A stretch of DNA of 64,000 bases from IMG/VR virus record IMGVR_UViG_3300037487_001184, positions 60,230-124,229 of that record. One strand, 5' to 3'. The number at the start of each line of letters is the position of its first letter. Positions within the stretch are counted from its first letter, which is position 1. Position numbers and translations under genes: made by a program. Below, in pieces: positions 42,540 through 64,000 of this stretch. The DNA comes from a virus. The notes under the pieces were generated by a model. That model did not search any database, was not told where the DNA came from, and saw nothing but the letters and a program-made list of their open reading frames with translations.

Positions 42540-42870
42540 ATCGAGAAGGTGCCCCCAAAATGCAAAGATTTACTGCAAAAGAAACTTGTCAAGATGGTGC
42601 CCCAAAACGGGGGCACCCCCTCCTACAATTTAGGGCAAAACATGAAAGCGCTTTCATAATTTTAATCAGAAAATGAGGCGACATGGCGTGTCGCCCCCTG
42701 CGACATGGCGTGTCGCACCCCTCGCCCATAAGTCTTTGATTTTCTTAAAAAATTGGATTTCTGCTAATATAATGAACGTTCTAGTTAACAAACTAATAAA
42801 GTAAGATAAGGAAACGTACTTAATAAATATAAGATATTTATTAAGTACGTTTCCTTTTTTTTTTTATAAG
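42540..42870. other. Putative replication origin / divergent control region
   Basis: GGTGCCCCCAAAA x2, GCGACATGGCGTGTCGC x2, palindrome ATGAAAGCGCTTTCAT, AT-rich 23-bp inverted repeat; at the strand switch, next to replication genes. Confidence 0.6.
42808..42856. repeat. Perfect 23-bp inverted repeat with 3-nt loop
   Basis: AAGGAAACGTACTTAATAAATAT-aag-ATATTTATTAAGTACGTTTCCTT. Confidence 0.95.
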
Positions 42871-53495: not shown

Positions 53496-55065
53496 TATGG
53501 CTAATATTGTAGATTATCTTAGAGCCGGAAACCCGTGTTTGTTTTTACCATCTGCAGAGGAGATGTCTGTGGAGGAGACGGTGAAGACTGCACTTAAGGA
53601 ACTCGAAGATGAAGGCAAGGAGCCCACCGATTATGCAGTCTGGAGAGTTACAACAGGATTAAGGATATATGCAGCCGGGCATTATGACAGCTTACCCAAA
53701 ACAGGACCTAAAGACTTAATCCCGTCGCTGCAAGAGATTGAGAAGAGCATCACTCCTCTGGTAGCAATATTCTTCAATGTCAGGTTCCATCTTGATAGTC
53801 CGGCTGTTGTGCAGCAGATAGCAGACACTGTTAATAAAGTGCGTTCTACTTTTTCTGCAGTAATACTAGCCGGTCCATATATAGAACTCCCCCCGGAGCT
53901 TCACGACGTAGTGACCTTCTGTGATTTTCCCCTACCAACACAGAAGCAACTGGAACAACAGTTTACTACTCTAATTAAAGAGTATCTACCCGATTTAACC
54001 AACTTTCCAGCCTCTGCTCCTGAACGCAGAGCTAAAATAAAGAAGGCTGCTATGAACGCAGCCGGACTTACTGCATTAGCTGCCGAGAACGCGTTATCTC
54101 TATCCCTATCAATGACCGGAGGGGTAGATACAAACATAATCCAGCAGCAAAAAGAACAGGATATCCGAAAGAGCGATATCCTTGAATATATATCAACTTC
54201 AGAGTCAATATCCACACTTGGTGGGTTTAGAGCACTGAAGTCATGGCTACAACGAAGGAAGGCTGGGTTTACTGATGAGGCTAGAGAGTTTGGACTATCT
54301 TACCCTAAAGGAATTCTATTGGTAGGAGCCGGGGGAGTTGGTAAGACACTTTGTGGTAAAGTAGCAGCCGCTTATCTGGAGCTTCCATTATTACGGTTAG
54401 ATATGGGACGTGTGTATTCAGCTTATGTTGGGTCCAGTGAGGCGCGTATCAGAAGTGCTTTGAAGATAGCAGAGGCAGTTTCACCATGTCTCTTATTGGT
54501 CGATGAACTTGAAAAGGGTTTGGCTGGACTTCAGGGTTCAGGAACTTTTGATTCGGGTGTAACGGCTAGAGTTATAGCTACGCTTTTGACATGGAGGCAG
54601 GAGACAACGAAGCCAGTGTTCCTGGTAGGCACTGTGAACGATCCTTCTAAATTACCACCTATGGTATACCGACGCGGCAGGTTCGATGAGATATGGTCTG
54701 TAGGGCTTCCTGATGCGGAGGAGCGCGTAGAGATACTTGGCATACATCTTACTAAACGAAAACAAGACCCGGCTCTGTTTGATTTGGTTTTTCTTGCTAA
54801 CAGGAGCAATGGTTACACCGGGGCAGAACTTGAGTCTTGTATAGAAGATGCGATGTTTACAGCTTTCTCAGGTGGTAAGAGGTTAGAGACAGAGCATATC
54901 ATGTATTCCATTCAAAGCACTAAACCACAGTCTAACATAGACAATGAAGAGGCACAGCAACTAGCCGAGTGGATGCATCAACGCGCTAGATCAGTATCAA
55001 TGGTGTCAGATTACAATGTAATGCCGCTACGAAAGGGAGAAAAAGATGTTAAAAACAAAAAATAA
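53479..55065 (+). CDS. AAA+ ATPase (Ycf46-like)
   Basis: LGGFRALKSWL, PKGILLVGAGGVGKT, LLRLDMG, LLLVDELEKG, RRGRFDE, GYTGAELE; the ATG at 53497 is a likely start. Confidence 0.85.
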   Translation: MTWTVNMANIVDYLRAGNPCLFLPSAEEMSVEETVKTALKELEDEGKEPTDYAVWRVTTGLRIYAAGHYDSLPKTGPKDLIPSLQEIEKSITPLVAIFFNVRFHLDSPAVVQQIADTVNKVRSTFSAVILAGPYIELPPELHDVVTFCDFPLPTQKQLEQQFTTLIKEYLPDLTNFPASAPERRAKIKKAAMNAAGLTALAAENALSLSLSMTGGVDTNIIQQQKEQDIRKSDILEYISTSESISTLGGFRALKSWLQRRKAGFTDEAREFGLSYPKGILLVGAGGVGKTLCGKVAAAYLELPLLRLDMGRVYSAYVGSSEARIRSALKIAEAVSPCLLLVDELEKGLAGLQGSGTFDSGVTARVIATLLTWRQETTKPVFLVGTVNDPSKLPPMVYRRGRFDEIWSVGLPDAEERVEILGIHLTKRKQDPALFDLVFLANRSNGYTGAELESCIEDAMFTAFSGGKRLETEHIMYSIQSTKPQSNIDNEEAQQLAEWMHQRARSVSMVSDYNVMPLRKGEKDVKNKK

Positions 55066-55822
55066 AAACAATCAGCAGAGTTCCGGGGAGGTAGTGGGGG
55101 GTGAGGCTGCACTCAGAGCCGAGATAATCACCATAAAGGATTCCATAGAGTCCGGGTTCCTAGTGCTGGCTCGTGACCTACATGAAGTGTTTATGGCTAA
55201 AATGTTTGTAGGGTGGGGGTTCCCTACATACGAGTCCTATATCAAGACAGAACTTGATTTCTCTTATAGGAAAGCCAAGTTTCTTACAGATATATGGCAG
55301 AAAGTTGAGGAGCTTGGGCTTTCACACGATAAGATAACAAAAATGGGTTGGTCTAAGGCTGTAGAACTCATTAAGGTGCTTACACCAGATAATGCTGACC
55401 TTTGGCTCGAAAAAGCAGGGGGCTTGTCTCTAGCTAAGCTTGAGGCAGCAGTTAAAGATGAACTAAACCGCACAGGTAATGACACGAAGCCTAAAGTGAA
55501 TATCATGACGTTTAAACTTGATGCTGCCGACGCTGGTATAGTTGGTGATGCTCTCACAGAAGCGAAACGGATTCACGACACAGACAATGACGTTTTAGCG
55601 TTATCTCAGATATGTGGTGAGTGGCTTATATTCAAAGGCAAGACTCCGGTTAGAACTTCCATCGAAGACTACATAGTGTTCCTGGAAAGGTCATTTGGAG
55701 TGCGCCTTGGGGTTGTTAATGCAGCAGAACCAGTGCCTAAGAAGAAGATGGTGAAAAAAGAAGAGCCGGTGTTCGACGACCTAGATGATAAAAGTATAGA
55801 TGATTTGCTGAGTGACGATTAA
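55046..55822 (+). CDS. Putative DNA-binding protein
   Basis: LARDLHEV..GWGFPTYESYIKTEL..SYRKA..GWSK pattern of DUF3102-like helical proteins. Confidence 0.55.
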   Translation: MLKTKNKNNQQSSGEVVGGEAALRAEIITIKDSIESGFLVLARDLHEVFMAKMFVGWGFPTYESYIKTELDFSYRKAKFLTDIWQKVEELGLSHDKITKMGWSKAVELIKVLTPDNADLWLEKAGGLSLAKLEAAVKDELNRTGNDTKPKVNIMTFKLDAADAGIVGDALTEAKRIHDTDNDVLALSQICGEWLIFKGKTPVRTSIEDYIVFLERSFGVRLGVVNAAEPVPKKKMVKKEEPVFDDLDDKSIDDLLSDD

Positions 55823-56550
55823 TGCTTTCTGTCCAAGATTACCTAACTGGTTTATACAGAGCTGTGCTGCGCGCTGACCCAGCCGTGGCAAAGCTCTGTC
55901 TTGGGCATCTGTGGAAAACGCTGAAAAACACCGATTATATAAAATGGAAACTTCTACTTCTTTGTTGCAGTTCATCTTACCACAATTTAGATGAGGCGCG
56001 CGCGTTACTGAGCAGCGACAAGCTTACTGGTAAGATGGCACTGGAGCTTGCTTACAATCTGTGCATGTTACCAAAAACCAGGGATGCTTTTGCATTAGCA
56101 TGGTTTACAAAAAAGGCGGGTACAATTGTACCCTATGAAGTAGCGTATTTCAAGGAAGCTTTGTTTCAACGAAATCCCCTAGAAGCACTTCCTTTTATTG
56201 GCAAGGGTCCAGTGCTTGGTCACGATGTAATCCTTTTCAAAGCCGCCTTGTTCCTACTGGAGAATAGGATACCAGTGGAGACACACTTTGTTGAGACCCC
56301 TGCGGTAGAGGCGGCTAAGATACTCCCATCATGGGCTACAGCGAAATTGGAGGATGTAGATATTGGTGATAATGCTGTTAATGAAGCATACTTTAATCTA
56401 TTTATAAGTGAGTATACTTACAATGTAGAGATAATAGAGCCTACAATACTACGATTAAAGACAACAGACAACTTACTTTGGACACAATACATGGCAACTA
56501 TATGTAATAGAGCTAACATGAGTCTGGAGGAGCTATGCAAACTAACATGA
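55822..56550 (+). CDS. Hypothetical protein
   Basis: 242-aa ORF with TAATG coupling; N-terminus weakly resembles the RarA C-terminal domain. Confidence 0.65.
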   Translation: MLSVQDYLTGLYRAVLRADPAVAKLCLGHLWKTLKNTDYIKWKLLLLCCSSSYHNLDEARALLSSDKLTGKMALELAYNLCMLPKTRDAFALAWFTKKAGTIVPYEVAYFKEALFQRNPLEALPFIGKGPVLGHDVILFKAALFLLENRIPVETHFVETPAVEAAKILPSWATAKLEDVDIGDNAVNEAYFNLFISEYTYNVEIIEPTILRLKTTDNLLWTQYMATICNRANMSLEELCKLT

Positions 56551-56777
56551 TTAAGAGACAGAGATGGTTTGGAGTGAGAGAAGAGGCTAAGGGTGTCAAG
56601 CTAGCTGGAACTGTGGAAGACTGGCTTGAAGTGAATAAAGATGATTTGGTGTATTGTGAGTCCCTTGGCGCAACCATTCACAAACGACATTGCACAAAGC
56701 ACGTATCTAAGCATGATAACGAGTATAAAGAGCGCAGAGTACTTACCTATTGTAAGAGTTGTCCAATATCCTCTTGA
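56535..56777 (+). CDS. Hypothetical Cys-containing protein
   Basis: 80-aa ORF, GGAGGAG RBS, C..C..CKSC. Confidence 0.6.
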   Translation: MQTNMIKRQRWFGVREEAKGVKLAGTVEDWLEVNKDDLVYCESLGATIHKRHCTKHVSKHDNEYKERRVLTYCKSCPISS

Positions 56778-56823
56778 CAAATGGCTGATAATGTGATTAA
56801 AAGGCGACAGAGGTGATTAACTA

Positions 56824-57543
56824 ATGGAAATAGAAGAAGTTCTTGAAAATAAAGAACTCATGTCAAATATCACGACTGTTGCTAAGGAAAGCACTATAAT
56901 TGGACGGTGGCTTCATGAAATACCAGACCATCTTCTAGCGGAGATATATCTAGACATGAGAGAGGGTGCCACATTTATTGAAATAATAGATAAGGTCCAA
57001 AAAGATTGGAGAATACTGTTTGACAGAAACTCCAGGTCTCTTATGGGTGACCTTGCAAACTTTAAGATGAAGGCACTTAATGATATCGCGCTTGTTGAAG
57101 CACAGTTAAAGAATGGTGAGCCTGGGGCACGCGAGATTAAAGATAAGCTTGAGAACCTGTCGGCAAGGATAGATGCTATGGGTAGATTAGGCTGGCTCGC
57201 AGATGTGCAGACAGCAAGGGTAGAGAAGTTTATAGCTATGGAAGATGTTGAAGGGAAGCCGCTTATAATCCTGAACGATACGATTAGGCAACTAAGCTCA
57301 ATCCTGGAAAAATATATCAAACTTGAGAATGATGTAGGTACAAGCAGAATTACATTCTCTGCAACAGGACAACCGTTAAAAGCATTCGCATTCGAAGCAC
57401 AAGATGATACAGATAAAATAATCTCAGCCACACGTAGACTTCTGGCTTTAACTGAAGAACGTGGGTTAGCAAACATAAAAGACGAAGCGATTGATGTGCC
57501 TGTCATTGAGGCTTCCTCACAGAAGGTAGTAGTCAATGCATAA
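56824..57543 (+). CDS. Putative terminase small subunit
   Basis: Helical protein overlapping the start of the large subunit. Confidence 0.5.
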   Translation: MEIEEVLENKELMSNITTVAKESTIIGRWLHEIPDHLLAEIYLDMREGATFIEIIDKVQKDWRILFDRNSRSLMGDLANFKMKALNDIALVEAQLKNGEPGAREIKDKLENLSARIDAMGRLGWLADVQTARVEKFIAMEDVEGKPLIILNDTIRQLSSILEKYIKLENDVGTSRITFSATGQPLKAFAFEAQDDTDKIISATRRLLALTEERGLANIKDEAIDVPVIEASSQKVVVNA

Positions 57544-59530
57544 GTACATAGAAATAGGAGAAGCACTAGAGGCAGTGCAGCAAATAAGTAAAGATATAGG
57601 ACTTACCAAACAATCAACCGGGTTCTTCGAAGACCTTGTTCTGTCATGTCACATGACAGAGAAAGATGGGCAATTACTGTTAGATAAACATCTGTTCAGT
57701 TTATACTGCGAAAACTATATGAAGACCATGTTATCTAAAGACATGGACCAAATGACAGCCATACGAGGATATAAGAAGCAGCCGGTAGATATCGAAGAGT
57801 TCTTAGAGTCTAAAGAATATATGAACCAAAGAGGTCATCTTAGACCAGTGATAAAATATGAACTGGATAGACTCTTTTCTAACAGAGATAAATATCTTGA
57901 GGTAATTCTTTCGGGTGGAATAGGGATTGGGAAAAGCTTCTTCTCTGAAATGGCATTATCCTATTTGGTGTATCTAAACTCTTGCCTAACAAATATGCAA
58001 GCAGAATATGATTTAGCCCCAGGTTCTACCATCTACTTCATTCTACAGTCTGTATCTATGACATCGGCTAAACGAGTCCTCTTCGACCAGATGATGGGGC
58101 GCATGTCACAAACACATTACTTTACAAGGGTGTTCCCCTTCGATAAAAAAGTTCGCTCTATGTTGAAATTCCCGAACGGATTGTATGTAACCCCGGTCAG
58201 TAGTACTGAAATGTCAGCGATTGGGTTGAATGTGTTTGCAGGTGTGATTTCGGAAGCTAACTTCTTCCAAGTAATAGCAGATAGTAAGTTAAGTAAATCT
58301 GCTGATGGAACATATGACCAAGCGGAACAGAATTATGGCACTATTATGCAGAGAATGCGTTCCAGGTTTGATAAAATGGGTAAAATGCCTGGAATGATGA
58401 TATTAGACTCTTCCGCACGGTACCCAGGCGACTTCCTAGATAGAAAGATGGAAGAAGCGAAGACAGACCCTAGTATATTCGTCATGAAGTATGCACAATG
58501 GGAAGCATTACCTGCGGATAGGATGAGCACAGAGAAATTCCTTGTTGAAATCGGGAATCATGAACGAAGTTCTAGAATTCTACCGAAATATGAGATGGCA
58601 TTCGAAGGGTCCGAAGTTATTGAAGTGCCGATGAACTACTTCCGTGACTTTCAACGAAATTGTGAAGCTGCACTCCGAGACTTTGCTGGTATTGTGCTCG
58701 GTGTTGAAGGTGCCTTCATGAAGAACAAGGAAGCAGTAGTTGATGCTGTTCGCGCGCACGCGGCTGTGTATGATAATAAGCAACTATTCACAATGGATGA
58801 CATTATCATAGATGCTGAGCTAGATTGGGGTTCTCCACACTGGGCGATGCTTATAAACCAGGACTATTTAAAGGAACCATCGTTCGACGCTGGCGCTACA
58901 TTTGCGCTGCACGCTGATATTGGTATCACACACGATAGTACTGGTCTTGTAGTGGGGCATATCCAAGATTATGTGAATCTGCCATCAACCAGTAGATACA
59001 ACGGCAAACTAGACACATTTGTAGAGTTAACCGATTTACTCGCACCAGTATTTTGTATAGATGGGATTATCCGTATTCGCCCACCACATGGCGGCGAAGT
59101 TCACATGGATCTGCTAAGAGGATTCATTTTCTACATCTGTCAGGTTCTTAATATAAAGTTTGGTACGTTTGATAGATTCTCTTCGGTGCAGTTTATACAA
59201 GGGTTGAGGCGATTAAAAGTAAGGAGTGGGTTAGTATCGACAGTAACAACGACACAACCATACAACGAACTTAAATCTGCCTATATTGAACACCGAATCA
59301 TACATCCCAGTCACAAAGTATATGTAGAGGAGCTACTTGGGTTGCAGTTCGAGCCTAAGAAGAACAGGATTGACCATTTACCCGGTGCTGGAAAAGACTG
59401 CGCTGATGCTATGGCTTCTGTTGTACACATACTTACAAACAAAGTGGCGAACTACAGCAGAAAGCACGAGGAAATCAAACAAGTAAAGCGGTACCAAAAG
59501 TTAGGGATTCGGAAATTGAGGTTCAGATAA
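57536..59530 (+). CDS. terL: Terminase large subunit
   Basis: PVDIEEFL, SGGIGIGKS (Walker A), GVISEANF (Walker B variant), LDSS, LHADIG..DSTG, TFDRF, IDH..GKDCADA. Confidence 0.85.
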   Translation: MHKYIEIGEALEAVQQISKDIGLTKQSTGFFEDLVLSCHMTEKDGQLLLDKHLFSLYCENYMKTMLSKDMDQMTAIRGYKKQPVDIEEFLESKEYMNQRGHLRPVIKYELDRLFSNRDKYLEVILSGGIGIGKSFFSEMALSYLVYLNSCLTNMQAEYDLAPGSTIYFILQSVSMTSAKRVLFDQMMGRMSQTHYFTRVFPFDKKVRSMLKFPNGLYVTPVSSTEMSAIGLNVFAGVISEANFFQVIADSKLSKSADGTYDQAEQNYGTIMQRMRSRFDKMGKMPGMMILDSSARYPGDFLDRKMEEAKTDPSIFVMKYAQWEALPADRMSTEKFLVEIGNHERSSRILPKYEMAFEGSEVIEVPMNYFRDFQRNCEAALRDFAGIVLGVEGAFMKNKEAVVDAVRAHAAVYDNKQLFTMDDIIIDAELDWGSPHWAMLINQDYLKEPSFDAGATFALHADIGITHDSTGLVVGHIQDYVNLPSTSRYNGKLDTFVELTDLLAPVFCIDGIIRIRPPHGGEVHMDLLRGFIFYICQVLNIKFGTFDRFSSVQFIQGLRRLKVRSGLVSTVTTTQPYNELKSAYIEHRIIHPSHKVYVEELLGLQFEPKKNRIDHLPGAGKDCADAMASVVHILTNKVANYSRKHEEIKQVKRYQKLGIRKLRFR

Positions 59531-59621
59531 AAAATTTGGGGTATCAAACACAGCCCAAACCTTCTCCTCCCGACCTGGGGCACCTAAGTTATGATACCCT
59601 ACTTTCTCTTTTGGAGGCATA

Positions 59622-59903
59622 ATGGCAATTGAAGTATCAATTTTGGATGAGAATGGAAATGAAACAATACTAAAGGAGGCACAAGTGACTGAAAACTTGC
59701 CAGTAGTAGTGAAAGGTAAATTCCCTAGTCTGCAAGAACAGCTTAAACAACAGCTTAATGCTGCTCACCAGAGATGTGTAGAGGCTGGCAGGGTAATTCA
59801 ACGGGCTGCAGAAGAGCGCGCAGAGTTGTGGGAGAAAATGGCGGATGTCAGCAAGAATGCTTTAAAAGACGATGTGACTACTTTCAACAAATTTGAGTCA
59901 TAA
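59622..59903 (+). CDS. Hypothetical protein
   Basis: 93-aa ORF with GGAGG RBS. Confidence 0.65.
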   Translation: MAIEVSILDENGNETILKEAQVTENLPVVVKGKFPSLQEQLKQQLNAAHQRCVEAGRVIQRAAEERAELWEKMADVSKNALKDDVTTFNKFES

Positions 59904-60512
59904 ATGATTGATTTAACTAATCAAAAGTTTGGCAAGTTAGTTGTGCAGAAGCTAGCTGGCAGAAATGGTAAGCACCTTGCTTGGAGCTGTGTCTGCGAGT
60001 GCGGAAATATTACCAGAGTTCAAGGTGGCAATTTGAAAAACGGGCATACTAAATCCTGTGGATGTCTCAACAAAGAAGTAATTGCTGAGAGAAGTACTTC
60101 ACATGGTCATGCTGTAGATGGGGTGCACACTACAACATATAGTAGTTGGTCTAATATGATGACTAGATGTAACAACTCCACATATTTTAGGTATAAAGAC
60201 TATGGTGGTCGAGGTATTAAGGTTTGTGATAGATGGCATAAGTTTGAGAACTTCTTGGCTGATATGGGTGAACGTCCAGAGGGTACGACACTTGATAGAA
60301 AAGATAACGACGGGGACTACTGCTTGGAAAATTGCAGGTGGGCTACCCCTAAAGAGCAGTGTAATAATACAAGGAGAAATGTGTGGATTAAATATAAGGG
60401 TGAGACAAAAAATGTAACTCAATGGGCAAAAAGTATAGGTATAACAGGTGCGCTTTTGCGGCAGAGGTTGACCAGAGATGGATGGTCAATTGAACGTGCG
60501 CTTACGACATGA
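59904..60512 (+). CDS. HNH-type homing endonuclease
   Basis: DLTNQKFGKL, CVCECG, TKSCGC, YGGRGIKVCDRW, TLDRKDNDGDY..NCRWAT. Confidence 0.85.
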   Translation: MIDLTNQKFGKLVVQKLAGRNGKHLAWSCVCECGNITRVQGGNLKNGHTKSCGCLNKEVIAERSTSHGHAVDGVHTTTYSSWSNMMTRCNNSTYFRYKDYGGRGIKVCDRWHKFENFLADMGERPEGTTLDRKDNDGDYCLENCRWATPKEQCNNTRRNVWIKYKGETKNVTQWAKSIGITGALLRQRLTRDGWSIERALTT

Positions 60513-60528
60513 TAAAATGGAGGGCTAA

Positions 60529-60741
60529 ATGATTATCTTAAAAAAATGTGTATGCAATAGTGCCTTCCAAGACGAAGAATACGGTGAGAATATCCGTGTT
60601 CATAACATGTGTAACCCGGCGGGTAACAAGTTTACCAAAGCTGGCTGCACAGTTTGTGCCAGAGTCAAGGATATCGCCGCAGTTTCAATGGCGGATGATA
60701 CAAAATTATCCAAAAAAGAGAAAAAGAAGGGTAAAAAATGA
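60529..60741 (+). CDS. Small putative Zn-binding protein
   Basis: CVC..FQD.EYG..RVHN..CTVC; GGAGG RBS. Confidence 0.7.
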   Translation: MIILKKCVCNSAFQDEEYGENIRVHNMCNPAGNKFTKAGCTVCARVKDIAAVSMADDTKLSKKEKKKGKK

Positions 60742-60818
60742 TACCTACCCCAGTGGAACTGCCGGGTGTATTTCAGATTCAAGCGAATAGATACCAAATG
60801 TATGTTATAGGAGGCTAA
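60738..60818 (+). CDS. Possible 26-aa coupled ORF (MIPTPVELPGVFQIQANRYQMYVIGG)
   Basis: ATGA overlap with the upstream stop; ends 1 nt before the next ATG. Confidence 0.35.
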   Translation: MIPTPVELPGVFQIQANRYQMYVIGG

Positions 60819-60819
60819 G

Positions 60820-61020
60820 ATGTTAGTACGCGCAAGATATAAAGAAGGTTATAATCCAGGAATAGAAGTGGTTATGGATATGAGCATAGACGAAACGGAT
60901 GTGTTCCACTATATAATGGACTGTGAGGTAGAACGTAACCTTACTATAACGGCTGATTTTGCACAAGAGATACTAGATGTCTTATTAGTAGCAGAGAAAG
61001 ACATAAAAGAATGGAACTAA
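60820..61020 (+). CDS. Hypothetical protein
   Basis: 66-aa ORF with AGGAGG RBS. Confidence 0.65.
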   Translation: MLVRARYKEGYNPGIEVVMDMSIDETDVFHYIMDCEVERNLTITADFAQEILDVLLVAEKDIKEWN

Positions 61021-61379
61021 CACAATCTGATGAGTTCATTAAAGCTATTAACGGAGAGAAGGTATACACATACTACTTCGATGTGTTCTGGGATGTAAAA
61101 GAAAACACGATAATATTATCCCCTGCCAGGTCTGAGCATGAGTCTATGGCTGATTGTGGAGTGACTGGATACCGGAATGGAGACTCCTGGCATTTGCGAG
61201 TAAAAGAAACTAGCGCATCAGCAGCAATGAAGAAAGCAAAGCTGCGGCTTGCTGCACACATCGGCGCGTTGGCGCAACGAGTAATGGATGCAGAGGCAGA
61301 CGACCCATCCACACACATGGGAAGCGAGGGTACAAAGTTTCCAGGATATGAATGGGTAGATGAGGTGTTCTCAGCATGA
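61011..61379 (+). CDS. Hypothetical protein
   Basis: 122-aa ORF overlapping both neighbours. Confidence 0.65.
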   Translation: MELTQSDEFIKAINGEKVYTYYFDVFWDVKENTIILSPARSEHESMADCGVTGYRNGDSWHLRVKETSASAAMKKAKLRLAAHIGALAQRVMDAEADDPSTHMGSEGTKFPGYEWVDEVFSA

Positions 61380-61885
61380 AGCCACATGTGGCTCAAAATA
61401 GCGGGGACAATGAATGGTACACGCCCAGCAGTATCATAACCTCCGCGTTAGCTGTTATGGGTAAAGTTGATCTAGATCCGGCAAGTAGTGAGATAGCAAA
61501 TGAAGTGGTAAAAGCACGGGTATTTTATAACATTAGTGATGACGGGTTATCTAAATTATGGAAAGGGAAAGTGTGGATGAATCCACCTTATGCTCAACCG
61601 CTTGCCTCTCTTTTCTGTAAAAAACTTATATACCATTTTGAAGAAGGGGACGTGCCAGAGGCAATGGCTTTGTTAAACAATGCTACTGAGACAAAATGGT
61701 TTCAGGAACTTGCTAGTGCAGCATCTGCCATCTGTTTTCCTAAAGGTAGGATTAGATACTGGCACCCGGATAAGAAGACTAGTACCCCGTTGCAAGGACA
61801 GGCAGTATTTTATTTTGGGAGTAACATTGAGGTGTTTGTGAATATCTTTAAATTACATGGTAGTTGTTTCGTGGTGTCAACATGA
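61376..61885 (+). CDS. Phage-type DNA N6-adenine methyltransferase
   Basis: NEWYTP, DLDPAS, DDGL..W.GKVWMNPPY, TETKWFQ, GRIRY. Confidence 0.85.
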   Translation: MKPHVAQNSGDNEWYTPSSIITSALAVMGKVDLDPASSEIANEVVKARVFYNISDDGLSKLWKGKVWMNPPYAQPLASLFCKKLIYHFEEGDVPEAMALLNNATETKWFQELASAASAICFPKGRIRYWHPDKKTSTPLQGQAVFYFGSNIEVFVNIFKLHGSCFVVST

Positions 61886-62607
61886 AGCTGCAAGTAGTAC
61901 CCTGGTTTGGCGGGAAAGGAGCAATCTATAAATGGATACTGGCAAACTTCCCAGAACACGATTATTTGGTTGATGCCTTCGGCGGGAGTGGTGTTATTAT
62001 CTTAAATGATAATGTGCCAGGGTTGTATAACGAAATAGATCCAGACCTGTTCTGGATGATGATAAACATCAAATGGGCATGTGCCCAGTTTGTAGATAGG
62101 TTGCGGGAAGTAGAATATTGTGAAAGCACTTGCAAGTCTGCCAGCAGATATTTTAAATTGGCGGAAGGAAGTTTTGATAGAGCGGTAGCCTACTATACGT
62201 GGCAACGAATGCGCTACGCTGGCGGAGAAGCTGCCGGTAGAGGATTCAAATGGACTGGTAGACAAACATGGGAAAACATGCTGCTAAAGTTGCCGGTAAT
62301 CGCCCAGCGGTTGCAGAATATAACTATATTCAACAAAAGTGCGCTAGACTTGTTACCGCTTAATCCTGCGGCCCAGCGGGGTAAAAAACCGCTAATATAC
62401 CTGGACCCTCCGTATCCTAGCGAGTTGAGAACGAGGGGTAAGTACAAATACGAGTTCGACGAGCATGAGAAGCTAATGAAGCTGGTAGAACCCTACGCAT
62501 TTGTGTTGTCAAGCTATGATAGCACGCTTCCTTACCCACACGTTAAGAAACCGACCAGAAACCAGAACGGCAAAGCCAGAGAAGAATACCTCTACATCCA
62601 CGCCTGA
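61882..62607 (+). CDS. Dam-like (D12 class) DNA adenine methyltransferase
   Basis: PWFGGK, DAFGGSG, NEID, IYLDPPY, LSSYD; the ATG at 61882 overlaps the previous stop (the track starts at 61864). Confidence 0.85.
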   Translation: MKLQVVPWFGGKGAIYKWILANFPEHDYLVDAFGGSGVIILNDNVPGLYNEIDPDLFWMMINIKWACAQFVDRLREVEYCESTCKSASRYFKLAEGSFDRAVAYYTWQRMRYAGGEAAGRGFKWTGRQTWENMLLKLPVIAQRLQNITIFNKSALDLLPLNPAAQRGKKPLIYLDPPYPSELRTRGKYKYEFDEHEKLMKLVEPYAFVLSSYDSTLPYPHVKKPTRNQNGKAREEYLYIHA

Positions 62608-62788
62608 AATTTTTCCACCAATTTTTTCTTGAAACCCCTGGTGGAAAAACTTGCCGAAAATCACTAATCGCGAAAAGGTGCCAAACAAATTCTGAGGGTT
62701 AGCTACACCCGCCCCCGCGCTGCATGTGTTATGATTACGATACGTTATCACCCTCCCCATATCCTTTCTTACATACACGCGCGGGAGT

Positions 62789-62901
62789 GACCCAGGTCGA
62801 CCCCGCGACCCTCGACCCAGGTCGACCCCGCGACCCTCGACCCAGGTCGACCCCGCGACCCTCGACCCAGGTCGACCCCGCGACCCCGCGACCCAGGTCG
62901 A
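62789..62901. repeat. 25-bp tandem repeat, about 4.5 copies
   Basis: GACCCAGGTCGACCCCGCGACCCTC exact at 62789, 62814 and 62839, then a variant and a partial copy. Confidence 0.95.
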
Positions 62902-62929
62902 TGTTTTTTCCCGCGAGGGTCGTTTTTCA

Positions 62930-62957
62930 TTGCAATTAGCTATTGACATGCTATTGT
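62930..62957 (+). promoter_or_regulatory. Candidate sigma70-type promoter of the GC-rich gene
   Basis: TTGCAA-16 nt-TATTGT with extended TG in an AT-rich patch; (GAAC)4 and a GAGAGGA RBS follow. Confidence 0.5.
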
Positions 62958-63003
62958 TGGCACTCCCAATACGGGAACGAACGAACGAACGAGAGGACCT
63001 ATC

Positions 63004-63705
63004 ATGTTTAGATTATTTGTTTTATCTTGGGCAACCGCGGCACTCCGCGCCCCCGCGAGAGTTTACATCGTTGACCGTACGGTCAGCGCGCTGACGAACT
63101 GGGTCGCACTCTCCGCGCCCGCGACGACCCTTCGCACTTGGTCGACCTGGGTCGCTGACCTCGCGAGGACCGCGGAAGAAACAAGGACCAGCGCGCCCGC
63201 GAGAATAAGGCAAGGGTCTTGGCGCGCGTTGACCCTCGCGATGATCGCGGAGCGAAGGTACTCGCGACCCGAGCGTGTACCTTGCGCGCTCGCGTGGGTC
63301 GAGGACCGCGCCCGCGATTGGTCGACCCTCGATCCAGTGATCGAAGTCAAGAAATCGAGGGTCGTACGTCGCGAAGTCAAGGGTCGCGCCGCGCTCGCGA
63401 AGACCGGGTCAAACCATTGGGAGCGCGGAGTGATCACGGAACGCGGGGTCTTCGCGCGAGTACTTCCCGACCCAGGGATCGAGGTCTGGTCTCAGGAACG
63501 ACAAATATTTGAGGACCGCGATCAGGGTCGTACCTTTGAGGTCTGCCGACCGATCACATCGCGACCCTTGCCCGCGCCGCGACCCTGGGTCAAGGTCGAC
63601 CGTACGGTCGCGCAAGCAATGCATGCGGATCTAGGTCTTGCGCGGCACCGCGAGGGTCGGTCGGTCGTCGCGAATCCAATGACCTCAATGTTAGATAGTA
63701 TCTAG
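63004..63705 (+). CDS. GC-rich hypothetical protein, stand-alone transcription unit
   Basis: 233-aa ORF with its own RBS, candidate promoter and terminator. Confidence 0.65.
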   Translation: MFRLFVLSWATAALRAPARVYIVDRTVSALTNWVALSAPATTLRTWSTWVADLARTAEETRTSAPARIRQGSWRALTLAMIAERRYSRPERVPCALAWVEDRARDWSTLDPVIEVKKSRVVRREVKGRAALAKTGSNHWERGVITERGVFARVLPDPGIEVWSQERQIFEDRDQGRTFEVCRPITSRPLPAPRPWVKVDRTVAQAMHADLGLARHREGRSVVANPMTSMLDSI

Positions 63706-63725
63706 ACCCTCGACCCTCGACCAAG

Positions 63726-63754
63726 ACCCCCGCGCTCGCGGGGGTTTTTTTTTT
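63726..63754 (+). terminator. Rho-independent terminator
   Basis: ACCCCCGC-gctc-GCGGGGGT followed by a T-tract. Confidence 0.9.
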
Positions 63755-64000
63755 GTCCTCGCTCCCAGGTCGTCCTCGCTCCCAGGTCGTCCTCGCTCCC
63801 AGGTCGTCCTCGCTCCCAGGTCGAGGGTCGCTCCCAGGTCGTCCTCGCTCCCAGGTCGTCCTCGCTCCCAGGTCGTCCTCGCTCCCAGGTCGTCCTCGCT
63901 CCCAGGTCGTCCTCGCTCCCAGGTCGTCCTCGCTCCCAGGTCGAGGGTCGCTCCCAGGTCGTCCTCGCTCCCAGGTCGTCCTCGCTCCCAGGTCGTCCTC
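63755..64000. repeat. 17-bp tandem array with 120-bp higher-order period, running off the window
   Basis: Unit GTCCTCGCTCCCAGGTC; 18-bp variant GAGGGTCGCTCCCAGGTC at 63823 and 63943, six standard units apart. Confidence 0.95.

Follow-up and report, generated by a model that had tools for sequence, protein, structure and literature searches.

This locus raises the question of why the genome of a 124-kb freshwater myovirus, which has a GC content of 0.41, switches abruptly to GC-rich DNA built from a few recurring words, and what those words are for. We analysed a 64,000-nucleotide stretch (the window), the end of which is also the end of the 124,229-bp contig that forms the database record. 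The abrupt switch that had been predicted from the letters was borne out: the GC content of positions 63001-64000 is 0.641, while the remaining 1-kb bins of the window lie between 0.36 and 0.48, except for the junction bin (62001-63000, 0.496). CpG behaves in the same way, with a rho of 1.51 in the island versus 0.64 in the genome. The island is a lineage-specific cassette of about 1.5 kb that runs from 62770 to 64000 and continues, via a tandem array (array 2), into contig bases 1 to ~305. It lies between a replication/terminase/methyltransferase block on one side and a run of small ORFs on the other, and at a GC content of 0.62-0.65 its composition is unlike that of the neighbouring genes. 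Megablast searches of GenBank phages with the island and with positions 55000-62600 returned no match, the two proteins flanking the island have no IMG/VR relatives, and there is no RNA dataset among the listed sequencing runs that contain the island.

The original prediction placed the island in a terminal, first-entering region. This claim rested on the contig end and is not supported, as the 'terminal' position is an assembly break within array 2: the start of the contig falls within the same 17-bp array, and the contig suffix matches the prefix over 13, 30 and 47 bases. The IMG/VR class 'direct terminal repeats' arises because the tandem array matches its own copy at both contig ends, and the locus serves as a warning that a tandem array at a contig break can yield both an unsupported terminal-repeat call and a 'terminal' reading. 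The accompanying caveat, a chimeric join near 62.7 kb, was refuted by L003, an independent 1.7-kb metagenome contig that spans the junction and covers the methyltransferase, array 1 and the ORF. The island is also present in three other studies, and it is not chimeric. Every close relative seen (L002, L003 and runs X2-X4) carries it at the same locus, and no presence/absence polymorphism was found among them. In a relative whose TerL is 62% identical, the DNA behind the TerL gene lacks such an island; there, the entire downstream region differs.

The island consists of one gene bracketed by two co-oriented satellite arrays. Directly 5′ of array 1 lies a conserved non-coding element (62700-62788, + strand) closed by a GC-rich long-range stem; 83 of its 89 bases are identical in L003, compared to 68 of 99 in the preceding spacer, and its fold scores z -2.1 on the + strand and -3.8 on the - strand, with no match in Rfam. 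Array 1 (62789-62901, + strand) holds 4.5 copies of a 25-bp unit (TRF score 210, 97% matches), is self-complementary (fold z -5.2 on the + and -3.2 on the - strand) and is kept, with indels, in L002, L003 and runs X2 and X3. The AT-richer leader that follows (62902-63003, + strand) contains two T-runs, an (ACGA)n run and a Shine-Dalgarno sequence at 62991-62997. A candidate promoter picked out by eye (8/12) has its hexamers at 62930-62935 and 62952-62957, separated by a 16-nt spacer, and their position is kept in the alignment with L002 and L003; a scan of 62400-64000 for sigma-70-like promoters gave 0 sites at ≥9/12, and downstream of array 2 such a scan gave 3 sites versus 3.7 expected. Behind the gene, an intrinsic terminator (63723-63754, + strand) with an 11-pair stem followed by T10 was the sole terminator-like site reported by a scan of 62400-64000, and the only Rfam matches on the island, all sub-threshold, were to this terminator. 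Array 2 (63755-64000, + strand) comprises 14.4 copies of 17 bp with a 120-bp higher-order unit (TRF score 432-492). It is composed of a 17-bp unit A and an 18-bp variant B. The right end reads AAAABAAAAAABAA with a further 6 nt, while at the contig start (bases 1-234) 7 nt precede the string AAAABABBABBBA; a GC-rich tail of ~70 bp with the same words then follows. The gene is thereby flanked by direct repeats on both sides, 25 bp × 4.5 and 17/18 bp × at least 24, the latter without spacing between units. Both arrays run head-to-tail and have the 9-bp core CCCAGGTCG in common. In IMG/VR the exact array patterns gave 0 matches and a gapped core pattern gave 2 chance matches in GC-rich contigs lacking arrays; a 21-mer searched in 185,579 species genomes gave 3 chance matches, in coding DNA of GC-rich MAGs.

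The gene between the arrays (63004-63705, + strand) encodes a 233-aa protein with a pI of 11.1, 33 Arg, 10 Trp and a hydrophobic N-terminus, and its GC-rich core carries the word bias. Compared with L002, the differences are distributed 28/14/64 over the three codon positions, with 49 synonymous and 28 non-synonymous codons and a dN/dS of 0.20 (0.23 and 0.145 in the two halves), a pattern indicating that the 233-codon ORF is a real gene under purifying selection. With its Shine-Dalgarno sequence and strong terminator the gene also looks expressed. Behind the stop codon, the DNA of L002 is no longer the same as that of the window. It is an orphan: among billions of proteins it has only two relatives, P0001 (97%) and P0002 (89%), the second of which is encoded on a 4285-bp contig. 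A tblastn search against phages gave no match, there was none in Pfam, PHROG, NCBIfam or PADLOC, a profile search of the PDB gave nothing at E up to 10, and the ESM Atlas held no usable match for the full protein or for residues 95-233. AlphaFold2, run on three sequences of the protein, gave a mean pLDDT of 34.

Phage morons are autonomous promoter-ORF-terminator units of deviant composition, and the island resembles one in its single orphan ORF, its own ribosome-binding site, its strong terminator and its deviant base composition. It differs from a moron in the satellite arrays that bracket it, in DNA words constrained beyond codon usage and in the lack of presence/absence polymorphism among close relatives, and its promoter is a by-eye candidate. 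A neutral cassette of this kind, in which an orphan gene resembling a moron, deviant in composition and equipped with expression signals of its own, is flanked by slippage-expanded satellites and has no cis function, is a possible explanation, and is nearly as likely as the packaging-zone reading that we prefer and set out below. The Shine-Dalgarno sequence, ORF and terminator do form a unit that stands out in GC (0.64 versus 0.41) and in CpG, the gene is an orphan, and both array copy number and the 5′ leader differ between relatives. The vocabulary would then stem from common descent with ongoing array-gene conversion, or from the signature of a GC-rich donor, after a filter imposed by the phage, which avoids sites of the GGCC type. 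Against a neutral cassette speaks the occupation of the same locus in all close relatives seen, with no insertion polymorphism.

The word counts bear directly on this choice. The by-eye counts for the 702-bp gene all proved exact: CGCG 35, GACC 18 and GGTC 22 (together 40), GATC 8, TCGA 8, GTAC 7, GGCC 0, AGCT 0 and CCGG 1. As controls we used 500 mononucleotide shuffles and 1000 synonymous-codon shuffles, the latter keeping both protein and codon usage. By the former, all six abundant words are enriched (CGCG z 10.2, GGTC 9.4, GACC 7.6, TCGA 3.7, GATC 3.3 and GTAC 3.2). By the latter, CGCG occurs 35 times versus 18.3 expected (z 5.7), GACC 18 versus 9.0, GGTC 22 versus 11.3, GTAC 7 versus 1.8 and CGCGA 15 versus 4.5, with none of the 1000 shuffles reaching any of these counts, and TCGCGA 7 versus 2.0 (1/1000). 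GATC (8 versus 6.0 expected; 169 of 1000 shuffles reach 8) and TCGA (8 versus 8.5) show no excess over the codon shuffle, and within the gene none of the zero or low counts of GGCC (1.6 expected), AGCT (0.5) and CCGG (2.9) reaches significance. Thus, the prediction that the bias is not driven by the protein alone stands for CGCG, GACC/GGTC and GTAC, and falls for GATC, TCGA and the absences of GGCC, AGCT and CCGG. That the bias also covers non-coding DNA was confirmed in the arrays, the 3′ UTR and the tail past array 2. In a scan of 500-bp bins the word score was 29-40 in the island, the median over the genome was 0, and no bin outside the island exceeded 3; the word set is found nowhere else in the genome.

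The vocabulary has also been maintained. In a relative that is 85% identical, CGCG occurs 35 times, as here, despite turnover of individual sites (5 lost, 5 gained), and GACC 19 times versus 18 (6 lost, 7 gained). Third-codon positions have changed at 28 of 129 sites within words versus 36 of 105 outside them (Fisher p 0.039). These results show that the whole island is written in a CpG-rich vocabulary (CGCG, CGACC/GGTCG) under DNA-level constraint. It is a clean case of such a vocabulary superimposed on a gene under purifying selection; to our knowledge, overlaps between a cis code and a protein code have rarely been documented in phages. Since the bias goes beyond codons, is present in the arrays and is kept despite turnover, a protein bound to the island DNA is possible. 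Both the constancy of word counts through turnover and the slower change of synonymous sites inside words argue against a neutral cassette. Word spacing in the ORF and its autocorrelation to lag 120 revealed no 17-bp, 25-bp or ~10.5-bp period (largest z 2.3). An origin of the ORF from decayed tandem repeats was accordingly rejected; while the lack of periodicity or helical phasing is in keeping with a neutral cassette, the lack of decayed repeats counts against it.

Outside the island the genome strongly avoids GATC (O/E 0.20, 90 versus 456 expected) and also avoids CpG; the island shows neither avoidance. It contains 10 of the 100 GATC sites of the genome in 1.3% of the genome length, along with 8 of 9 GTCGAC and 8 of 11 TCGCGA sites. 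So abrupt a local departure from an avoidance of restriction sites and CpG that otherwise holds throughout the genome suggests that the stretch is protected, mutates under another regime or is of recent origin. Several palindromes are also avoided by the genome, with GGCC at an O/E of 0.11 and CAGCTG, GCCGGC, GGCGCC and GAGCTC all at 0, and the most depleted trinucleotides (GCC/GGC 0.30, CAC/GTG 0.36, CAG/CTG 0.42 and AGC/GCT 0.46) belong to such avoided palindromes, as expected of a neutral cassette filtered by the phage. The same explanation would accommodate GATC and TCGA, which lie one step from, or within, the core words, and the free turnover of GATC, of which 5 sites are shared with the relative, 3 lost and 4 gained.

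Two N6-adenine DNA methyltransferase genes adjoin the island: a Dam-family gene (61376-61885, + strand, 169 aa; PF05869 4.4e-17, phrog_111 4.4e-36) and a D12-class gene (61882-62607, + strand, 241 aa; PF02086 4.8e-10, phrog_56 2.6e-32). The original prediction proposed that adenine-containing words link the island to these enzymes, as methylation armour or as a restriction decoy protecting first-entering DNA. The concentration of GATC, GTCGAC and TCGCGA in the island of an otherwise GATC-avoiding genome fits this proposal, as does the finding that 6 of the 10 island GATC sites lie within TGATCR hexamers versus 15 of the 90 elsewhere, which recalls the Dam-regulated pac site of P1. The link did not withstand the codon-shuffle control, in which GATC and TCGA are not in excess, and the words that are enriched, CGCG and GACC/GGTC, are not adenine-methylase palindromes. 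Nor do the methyltransferases track the island among relatives. The D12-class gene is present in all of them (91% DNA identity in L003), and the Dam-family gene is accessory, some close relatives having it and others not: the run X3 contig has 20 nt in place of 61380-61905, and in run X2 the form bearing the gene is a minority of ~10% (depth 29.1 versus 286-299 in the surroundings), with the island kept in both. This gene is lacking from the majority of related genomes with the island, individual GATC sites are not conserved, and the supposed terminal position is an assembly break. By the precedent of T5, moreover, first-entry DNA should be the site-poorest part of a genome and not the richest. 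The link to methylation is therefore weak; methylation is not the organising principle of the island, and armour or a decoy is very improbable. A CRISPR-repeat-like decoy and end-protection sites had resemblance as their sole basis and were set aside.

The words could alternatively act in RNA, with inverted words forming hairpins in a highly structured transcript that would serve stability, decoy or regulation. For the 801-nt transcript region the folding energy is -365.5 kcal/mol, compared to -323.3 ± 8.0 for 20 shuffles (z -5.3), and array 1 is self-complementary. Structure of this kind follows from the occurrence of the words in both orientations, and the same words are found on both sides of the terminator in DNA that is non-transcribed or separately transcribed. 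As no Rfam family scored above threshold on the island either, we consider a constraint at the RNA level hardly credible.

Read depth provides a further line of evidence; it was taken from assembled contigs and covers the left side of array 2 only. Over the unique island segment (62857-63760), run X1 has a depth of 44.4 versus 25.7 in the flank (1.73x), run X2 430 versus 265-299 (1.44-1.62x) and run X3 6.1 versus 3.0-4.9 (1.2-2.0x), while run X4, of very low depth, shows no excess (3.07 versus 3.6-6.0). Library GC bias (62% versus ~45% GC) may be the source of the excess. A second strain is an unlikely one, because between lineages the flanks (91%) are more conserved than the ORF (87%). The excess of 1.5-1.7x in two of the runs is unexplained by a neutral cassette.

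Over-replication could also raise local depth, as in an iteron-type origin or partition-like module in which the basic orphan protein (pI 11.1) binds the two arrays flanking its own gene. Precedents for proteins binding direct-repeat arrays beside their own gene are incC-repA-incA of P1 and parC of R1, and with P1 incC-repA-incA the island, whose repeat units measure 17-25 bp, shares direct-repeat arrays on either side of one gene. Unlike in iteron replicons, there is no Rep-family signal, nor any match of the protein to ParB, ParR or another family in Pfam, PHROG, NCBIfam or the PDB; the arrays are much longer head-to-tail satellites without spacing between units, and the gene itself is filled with the words as well. 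Among the neighbouring ORFs scanned there was no gene for a partition NTPase, and the change in depth in run X2 is a sharp step, not a gradient, because the short contigs that were compared directly adjoin the island. The phage, furthermore, encodes its own helicase, primase and polymerase module, and a candidate for a more conventional origin lies near 42.7 kb: at this divergent switch the cumulative GC skew reaches its minimum at a 22-bp × 2 repeat. An iteron or partition module is accordingly unlikely.

Our preferred reading, which we put forward tentatively, is that the island is a zone of packaging or terminal redundancy in which an early gene is embedded. It would constitute the packaging boundary, i.e. 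the concatemer junction. A DNA-binding protein would recognise the arrays and the dense short words as cis sites repeated many times over. Candidates for this protein are the terminase and other proteins that handle DNA ends, among them perhaps the very basic protein encoded by the embedded gene itself; this gene would then lie at or next to the end of the packaged DNA and be present in more than one copy per virion genome. The depth excess in three runs, estimated from contigs, is consistent with this proposal, as is the cis-acting character of the sequence, with its shared 9-bp core and genome-unique words kept beyond codon constraints. The position is also suggestive: the island lies, on the same strand, 3.3 kb downstream of the large terminase subunit gene (TerL, 57536-59530, + strand, 664 aa) and 5.3 kb downstream of a small terminase candidate (56824-57543, + strand, 239 aa), which was chosen by position only, its stop overlapping the TerL start, and whose best PHROG match (E 0.0044, to a family of unknown function) is not convincing. 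TerL was identified by tblastn, with matches in 352 phage records, the best of them 32-35% identical over 84-87% of the query and annotated as terminase large subunit; it had no PHROG or Pfam match at the thresholds used, and the genome gave no match to the TerL Pfam models PF03237, PF17289 and PF03354.

Several observations weigh against a packaging zone. The depth excess was seen only left of array 2, in contigs and not in run X4, and GC bias of the libraries may underlie it. Relatives of TerL include Rhodobacter, Streptomyces and Maribacter phages, and among those whose ends we looked up, RcZahn is circularly permuted and RcDurkin is given as 'P1 headful' (Table 3, PMC8601537); these typed relatives are headful packagers and not exact-terminal-repeat phages, at an identity (32-34%) too low to decide the packaging type. 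The IMG/VR label is only a self-match of a tandem array, the relative with 62% TerL identity lacks an island downstream of TerL, and a packaging function leaves the saturation of a whole gene with words unexplained.

There are precedents for packaging signals that lie inside a gene or are built from reiterations. In P1, pac is a 161-bp sequence inside pacA with seven TGATCA/G hexamers, whose Dam methylation controls cleavage (PMC10028697). The island similarly offers a possible packaging signal within coding sequence and a GATC cluster in a GATC-poor genome, beside Dam-type methyltransferases and near terminase genes, with the TGATCR preference noted above. Unlike the 4+3 grouping of P1, the island hexamers are scattered over ~900 bp, five in the gene (three of them kept in L002 according to a by-eye reading) and the sixth past array 2, outside the L002 contig. 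Also unlike pacA, the island gene is no terminase subunit by any test, and its GATC sites are not enriched over the codon shuffle.

The herpesvirus 'a' sequence, at the concatemer junction, has in HSV-1 the arrangement DR1-pac1-(DR4)m-(DR2)n-pac2-DR1, with 19-22 copies of the 12-bp DR2 and 2-3 copies of the 37-bp DR4 (PMC10763189). The island is alike in having two kinds of short direct-repeat array of variable copy number beside unique segments, T- or A-runs flanked by C/G-rich stretches and, if the packaging reading holds, a position at the junction of packaged genomes. The two differ in that there is no homology, a protein gene separates the island arrays, and this is a tailed phage with headful TerL relatives and a junction that is a proposed one.

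The island might, further, be a self-encoded end module: the very basic orphan protein would coat its own arrays and gene, mark the packaging start or genome end and shield this one stretch of the genome in place of methyl groups. Although improbable, such a module would explain why only the island escapes the fivefold avoidance of GATC and the depletion of CpG. Should the depth excess be real, it would pinpoint the packaging boundary in this uncultured lineage of 124-kb phages and supply a candidate end-binding protein.

The layout finally recalls phage T7, whose terminal repeat is non-coding and is reported in the T7 genome paper to be flanked, at the concatemer junction, by short-repeat arrays. 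That repeat measures 160 bp (Table 3, PMC4925675). Although T7-type TerL is not the nearest relative of the TerL of this phage, the island resembles the T7 junction in that a unique segment separates short-repeat arrays of two kinds, at what may be the junction of genome units.

The GC content of the window is 0.36–0.48 in its bulk, 0.496 in the junction bin 62001–63000 and 0.64 in the last kilobase, which belongs to a GC-rich island (GC 0.65 as a whole) covering window 62770–64000 and contig bases 1 to ~305. The island is built as a cassette. A conserved non-coding element of 89 bp (62700–62788) lies left of array 1, in which a 25-bp unit is repeated 4.5 times. Next comes a leader, richer in AT, in which two T-runs, a stretch of (ACGA)n and a Shine-Dalgarno sequence can be read, and then an orphan ORF of 233 codons (63004–63705), whose first ~9 and last ~13 codons are AT-rich like the remaining phage DNA. 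Downstream follow a 3′ UTR that shares the island's words, a strong terminator made of an 11-pair stem and T10, array 2 with at least 24 copies of 17/18-bp units, and a tail of ~70 bp (contig bases 235–305) that continues the vocabulary. Both arrays carry, in one orientation, the core CCCAGGTCG, and all 32 genome copies of this core lie inside the island. Long-range pairing of GC-rich ends closes the 89-bp element into a stem; the element carries an imperfect inverted repeat in its middle and has no Rfam match.

The by-eye word counts of the original prediction for 63004–63705 each proved exact on recount, and all of the named words are high against mononucleotide shuffles. Under 1000 synonymous-codon shuffles, which keep the protein and the codon usage, the proposed bias held in part. 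No shuffle reached the observed numbers of CGCG (35 versus 18.3 expected), GACC (18 versus 9.0), GGTC (22 versus 11.3), GTAC (7 versus 1.8) or CGCGA (15 versus 4.5), and a single one reached that of TCGCGA (7 versus 2.0). GATC (8 versus 6.0) and TCGA (8 versus 8.5), however, showed no excess, and the absences of GGCC, AGCT and CCGG within the gene were without significance; whole-codon permutation split the words in the same way. The true vocabulary of the island is thus one of CpG-based words plus CGACC/GGTCG, not of adenine-methylase palindromes. The set GGTCG/CGACC/CGCGA/TCGCG scores 29–40 per 500 bp in the island, whereas 500-bp bins genome-wide have a median of 0 and a 95th percentile of 2, the next-highest bin scoring 3.

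Comparison with L002, a metagenome contig from an 88%-identical relative, shows that the ORF is a real gene, under purifying selection in both halves (dN/dS 0.23 and 0.145; 0.20 overall). The 106 nucleotide differences are distributed 28/14/64 over the codon positions and fall in 49 synonymous and 28 non-synonymous codons; four of the five other frames have 3–8 synonymous codons out of 76, and the antisense frame that shares its wobble positions with the sense frame has 35 of 76. Among 5.8 billion clustered proteins there are two full-length homologues (97% and 89% identity, both 233 aa), and HMMER, run in full on 1.84 billion representatives, returned nothing beyond that one cluster. The protein (pI 11.1, 33 Arg, 10 Trp, hydrophobic N-terminus) has no family, PDB or atlas match, and fold prediction gave no usable model (pLDDT 34). 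By eye, the segments encoded at 63331–63390 and 63469–63530 look alike: each starts with DP(V/G)IEV, at a distance of ~46 residues, and a putative beta-hairpin unit may thus have been duplicated within the protein.

The words are also constrained at the DNA level. Between the window and L002 their counts are kept through turnover, with 35 CGCG in each (30 shared, 5 lost, 5 gained), 22 and 24 GGTC, and 18 and 19 GACC (12 shared, 6 lost, 7 gained). Within words, third-codon positions differ at 28 of 129 sites and elsewhere at 36 of 105, a modest effect (Fisher p 0.039). The ORF has no periodicity at 17 bp, 25 bp or the helical repeat and so does not derive from an array that decayed recently. 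Transcript and array 1 both fold well beyond their shuffles (z −5.3 and −5.2), owing to the presence of each word in either orientation; we consider a constraint acting on the RNA very improbable.

The original prediction had cast the island as DNA coated with modified bases, serving as armour or decoy, with the two neighbouring methyltransferases as writers of the adenine-containing words. Both genes, the Dam-family gene at 61376–61885 (+) and the D12 gene at 61882–62607 (+), do encode N6-adenine enzymes (PF05869 and PF02086). The Dam-family gene is accessory, however, being polymorphic for presence and absence. In a contig from sequencing run X3, position 61379 is joined to 61906 via 20 other nucleotides, so that 61380–61905 are missing, and in run X2 the gene-bearing form is a ~10% minority (depth 29 versus 286–299 in the surroundings), while both runs contain the island. 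Methyl armour through the METHYLTRANSFERASE link thereby loses its main support, given also how GATC and TCGA behaved under codon shuffling, and we regard that model as highly improbable. A weak echo of a methylation link may be seen in TGATCR/YGATCA hexamers, which account for 6 of the 10 island GATC sites versus 15 of 90 elsewhere (window 63245–63555 and contig ~247); TGATCR is the P1 pac word (PMC10028697). By eye, three of the five hexamers inside the gene are kept in L002, and the sixth sits past array 2, outside the L002 contig. Three of the hexamers, also by eye, recur at intervals of ~93 bp (31 codons) with (M/V)-I as their translation, and their source may be a repeat in the protein instead of a signal in the DNA.

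Of the new findings, the contrast between the island and the rest of the genome (window 1–62700 plus contig 431–60229) is the most interesting. Outside the island GATC is fivefold under-represented (90 versus 456 expected, O/E 0.20) and GGCC ninefold (18 versus 170, O/E 0.11), and eleven six-base palindromes are wholly missing, including CAGCTG (24 expected), GCATGC, GAGCTC and GGATCC. This restriction-type avoidance is extreme despite the phage's two adenine methyltransferases. The island makes up 1.3% of the sequence and contains 10 of the 100 GATC sites, 8 of the 9 copies of GTCGAC and 8 of the 11 of TCGCGA, and its CpG rho is 1.51 versus 0.64 outside. GGCC is nevertheless absent from the whole island (0 versus 10–17 expected from its own composition), as are the GC-rich six-base palindromes missing elsewhere, and the trinucleotides most depleted in it are those of which these avoided sites are composed. 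The island therefore appears to have evolved under the phage's GGCC-type avoidance, yet exempt from its GATC and CpG rules. A single transition converts GACC or GGTC into GATC, whose sites turn over freely between the window and L002, so mutational supply may account for some of the exemption.

The window covers bases 60230–124229 of a single virus contig of 124,229 bp and therefore ends where the contig ends, and the original prediction had taken the island to be terminal. The contig opens, however, inside the same 17-bp tandem array that closes its right end: suffix and prefix match at 13, 30 and 47 bases, and the units read AAAABAAAAAABAA followed by 6 nt on the right and, at the start, 7 nt followed by AAAABABBABBBA, for an assembled extent of array 2 of at least 433–480 bp. 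The terminal position is thus no mapped DNA end but an assembly break within a repeat. The IMG/VR class of the record, 'direct terminal repeats', is array 2 matching itself, and the listed completeness of 100 may rest on that match too. Tandem arrays of this kind (here window 63755–64000 against contig 1–234) are a general trap for DTR calls.

The junction near 62.7 kb is not chimeric. In a different metagenome a single contig of 1731 bp, L003, spans the end of the Dam-family gene, the D12 gene, the spacer and array 1 and reaches into the ORF, and in contigs of three runs, X2–X4, from other studies of sediment and lake water, the island is joined to flanking phage DNA at 97–99% identity. Relative to L003, identity is 91% in the D12 gene, 69% in the spacer, 93% in the 89-bp element and 87% in the ORF, and array 1 differs by indels among L003, X2–X4 and the window. 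The right half of the island varies between lineages, since the sequence after the ORF stop in L002 (988–1044) is unrelated to the terminator and array 2 of the window, while still in island vocabulary. As a unit the island resembles a moron, and a neutral cassette of moron plus satellite is almost as probable an explanation as the packaging zone proposed below; the island does not show the presence/absence pattern of a moron, and its promoter is a by-eye candidate in the leader that a promoter scan did not report.

Depth was compared on assembled contigs over 60500–63760, left of array 2. The unique island segment stands at 44.4 versus 25.7 for the flank in X1, possibly the source sample, and at 430 versus 265–299 in X2, the latter from short contigs directly adjoining. 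This is a sharp 1.4–1.7x excess in the two runs of adequate depth, to which library GC bias could contribute. Of the low-depth runs, X3 agrees (6.1 versus 3.0–4.9) and X4 does not (3.07 versus 3.6–6.0). A co-occurring strain is an unlikely source, because the flanks are more conserved than the island.

The phage is a myovirus with its own replication functions (tail sheath, DnaB-like helicase, primase, UvsX-like recombinase, portal, DNA polymerase, ribonucleotide reductase). The 664-aa ORF at 57536–59530 is clearly the large terminase (TerL) by tblastn, which matched 352 phage records, the best of them 32–35% identical and annotated terminase large subunit. It had no PHROG match at 1e-5, a genome-wide search with three Pfam models of TerL missed it, and a sub-threshold Pfam match to SatRNA_48 (E 0.008) was rejected as spurious. 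An overlapping 239-aa ORF at its start is a candidate TerS by position. This TerL belongs to a divergent clade common to 80–130-kb phages of Vibrio, Stenotrophomonas, Rhodobacter, Gordonia and Streptomyces; among relatives with typed ends, Table 3 of PMC8601537 lists RcZahn as circularly permuted and RcDurkin as 'P1 headful'. The island lies 3.3 kb downstream of the phage's own TerL on the same strand; an HNH gene, several small ORFs and both methyltransferase genes come in between, and further small ORFs after it.

From the conserved cassette, its DNA-level constraint, the terminase proximity and the depth excess we infer, tentatively, that the island is a packaging boundary or a zone of terminal redundancy. 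A protein that handles the ends or associates with the terminase, possibly the very basic product of the cassette itself, would use the arrays and words as reiterated cis sites, and the orphan gene would be carried at, or adjoin, a packaged DNA end. As a possible junction the island can be likened to that of T7, with no homology. It bears the same likeness, again with no homology, to the herpesvirus 'a' sequence as outlined in PMC10763189 and to the P1 pac-in-gene arrangement as outlined in PMC10028697. In L013, a relative whose TerL is 62% identical, the 6 kb downstream of TerL contain no such island. A stretch of ~0.9 kb there (L013 13190–14100) is GC-richer (0.54–0.58) and purine-rich, has no convincing ORF or Rfam match, and may represent either a structured RNA of large size or genes in decay.

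The reiterated arrays could also be iterons of a replication origin or partition module, which we judge unlikely; a more conventional candidate origin is found at 42678–42722. There, a 22-bp tandem repeat (two copies) sits where the minus-strand structural genes and the plus-strand replication genes diverge and where cumulative GC skew reaches its minimum.
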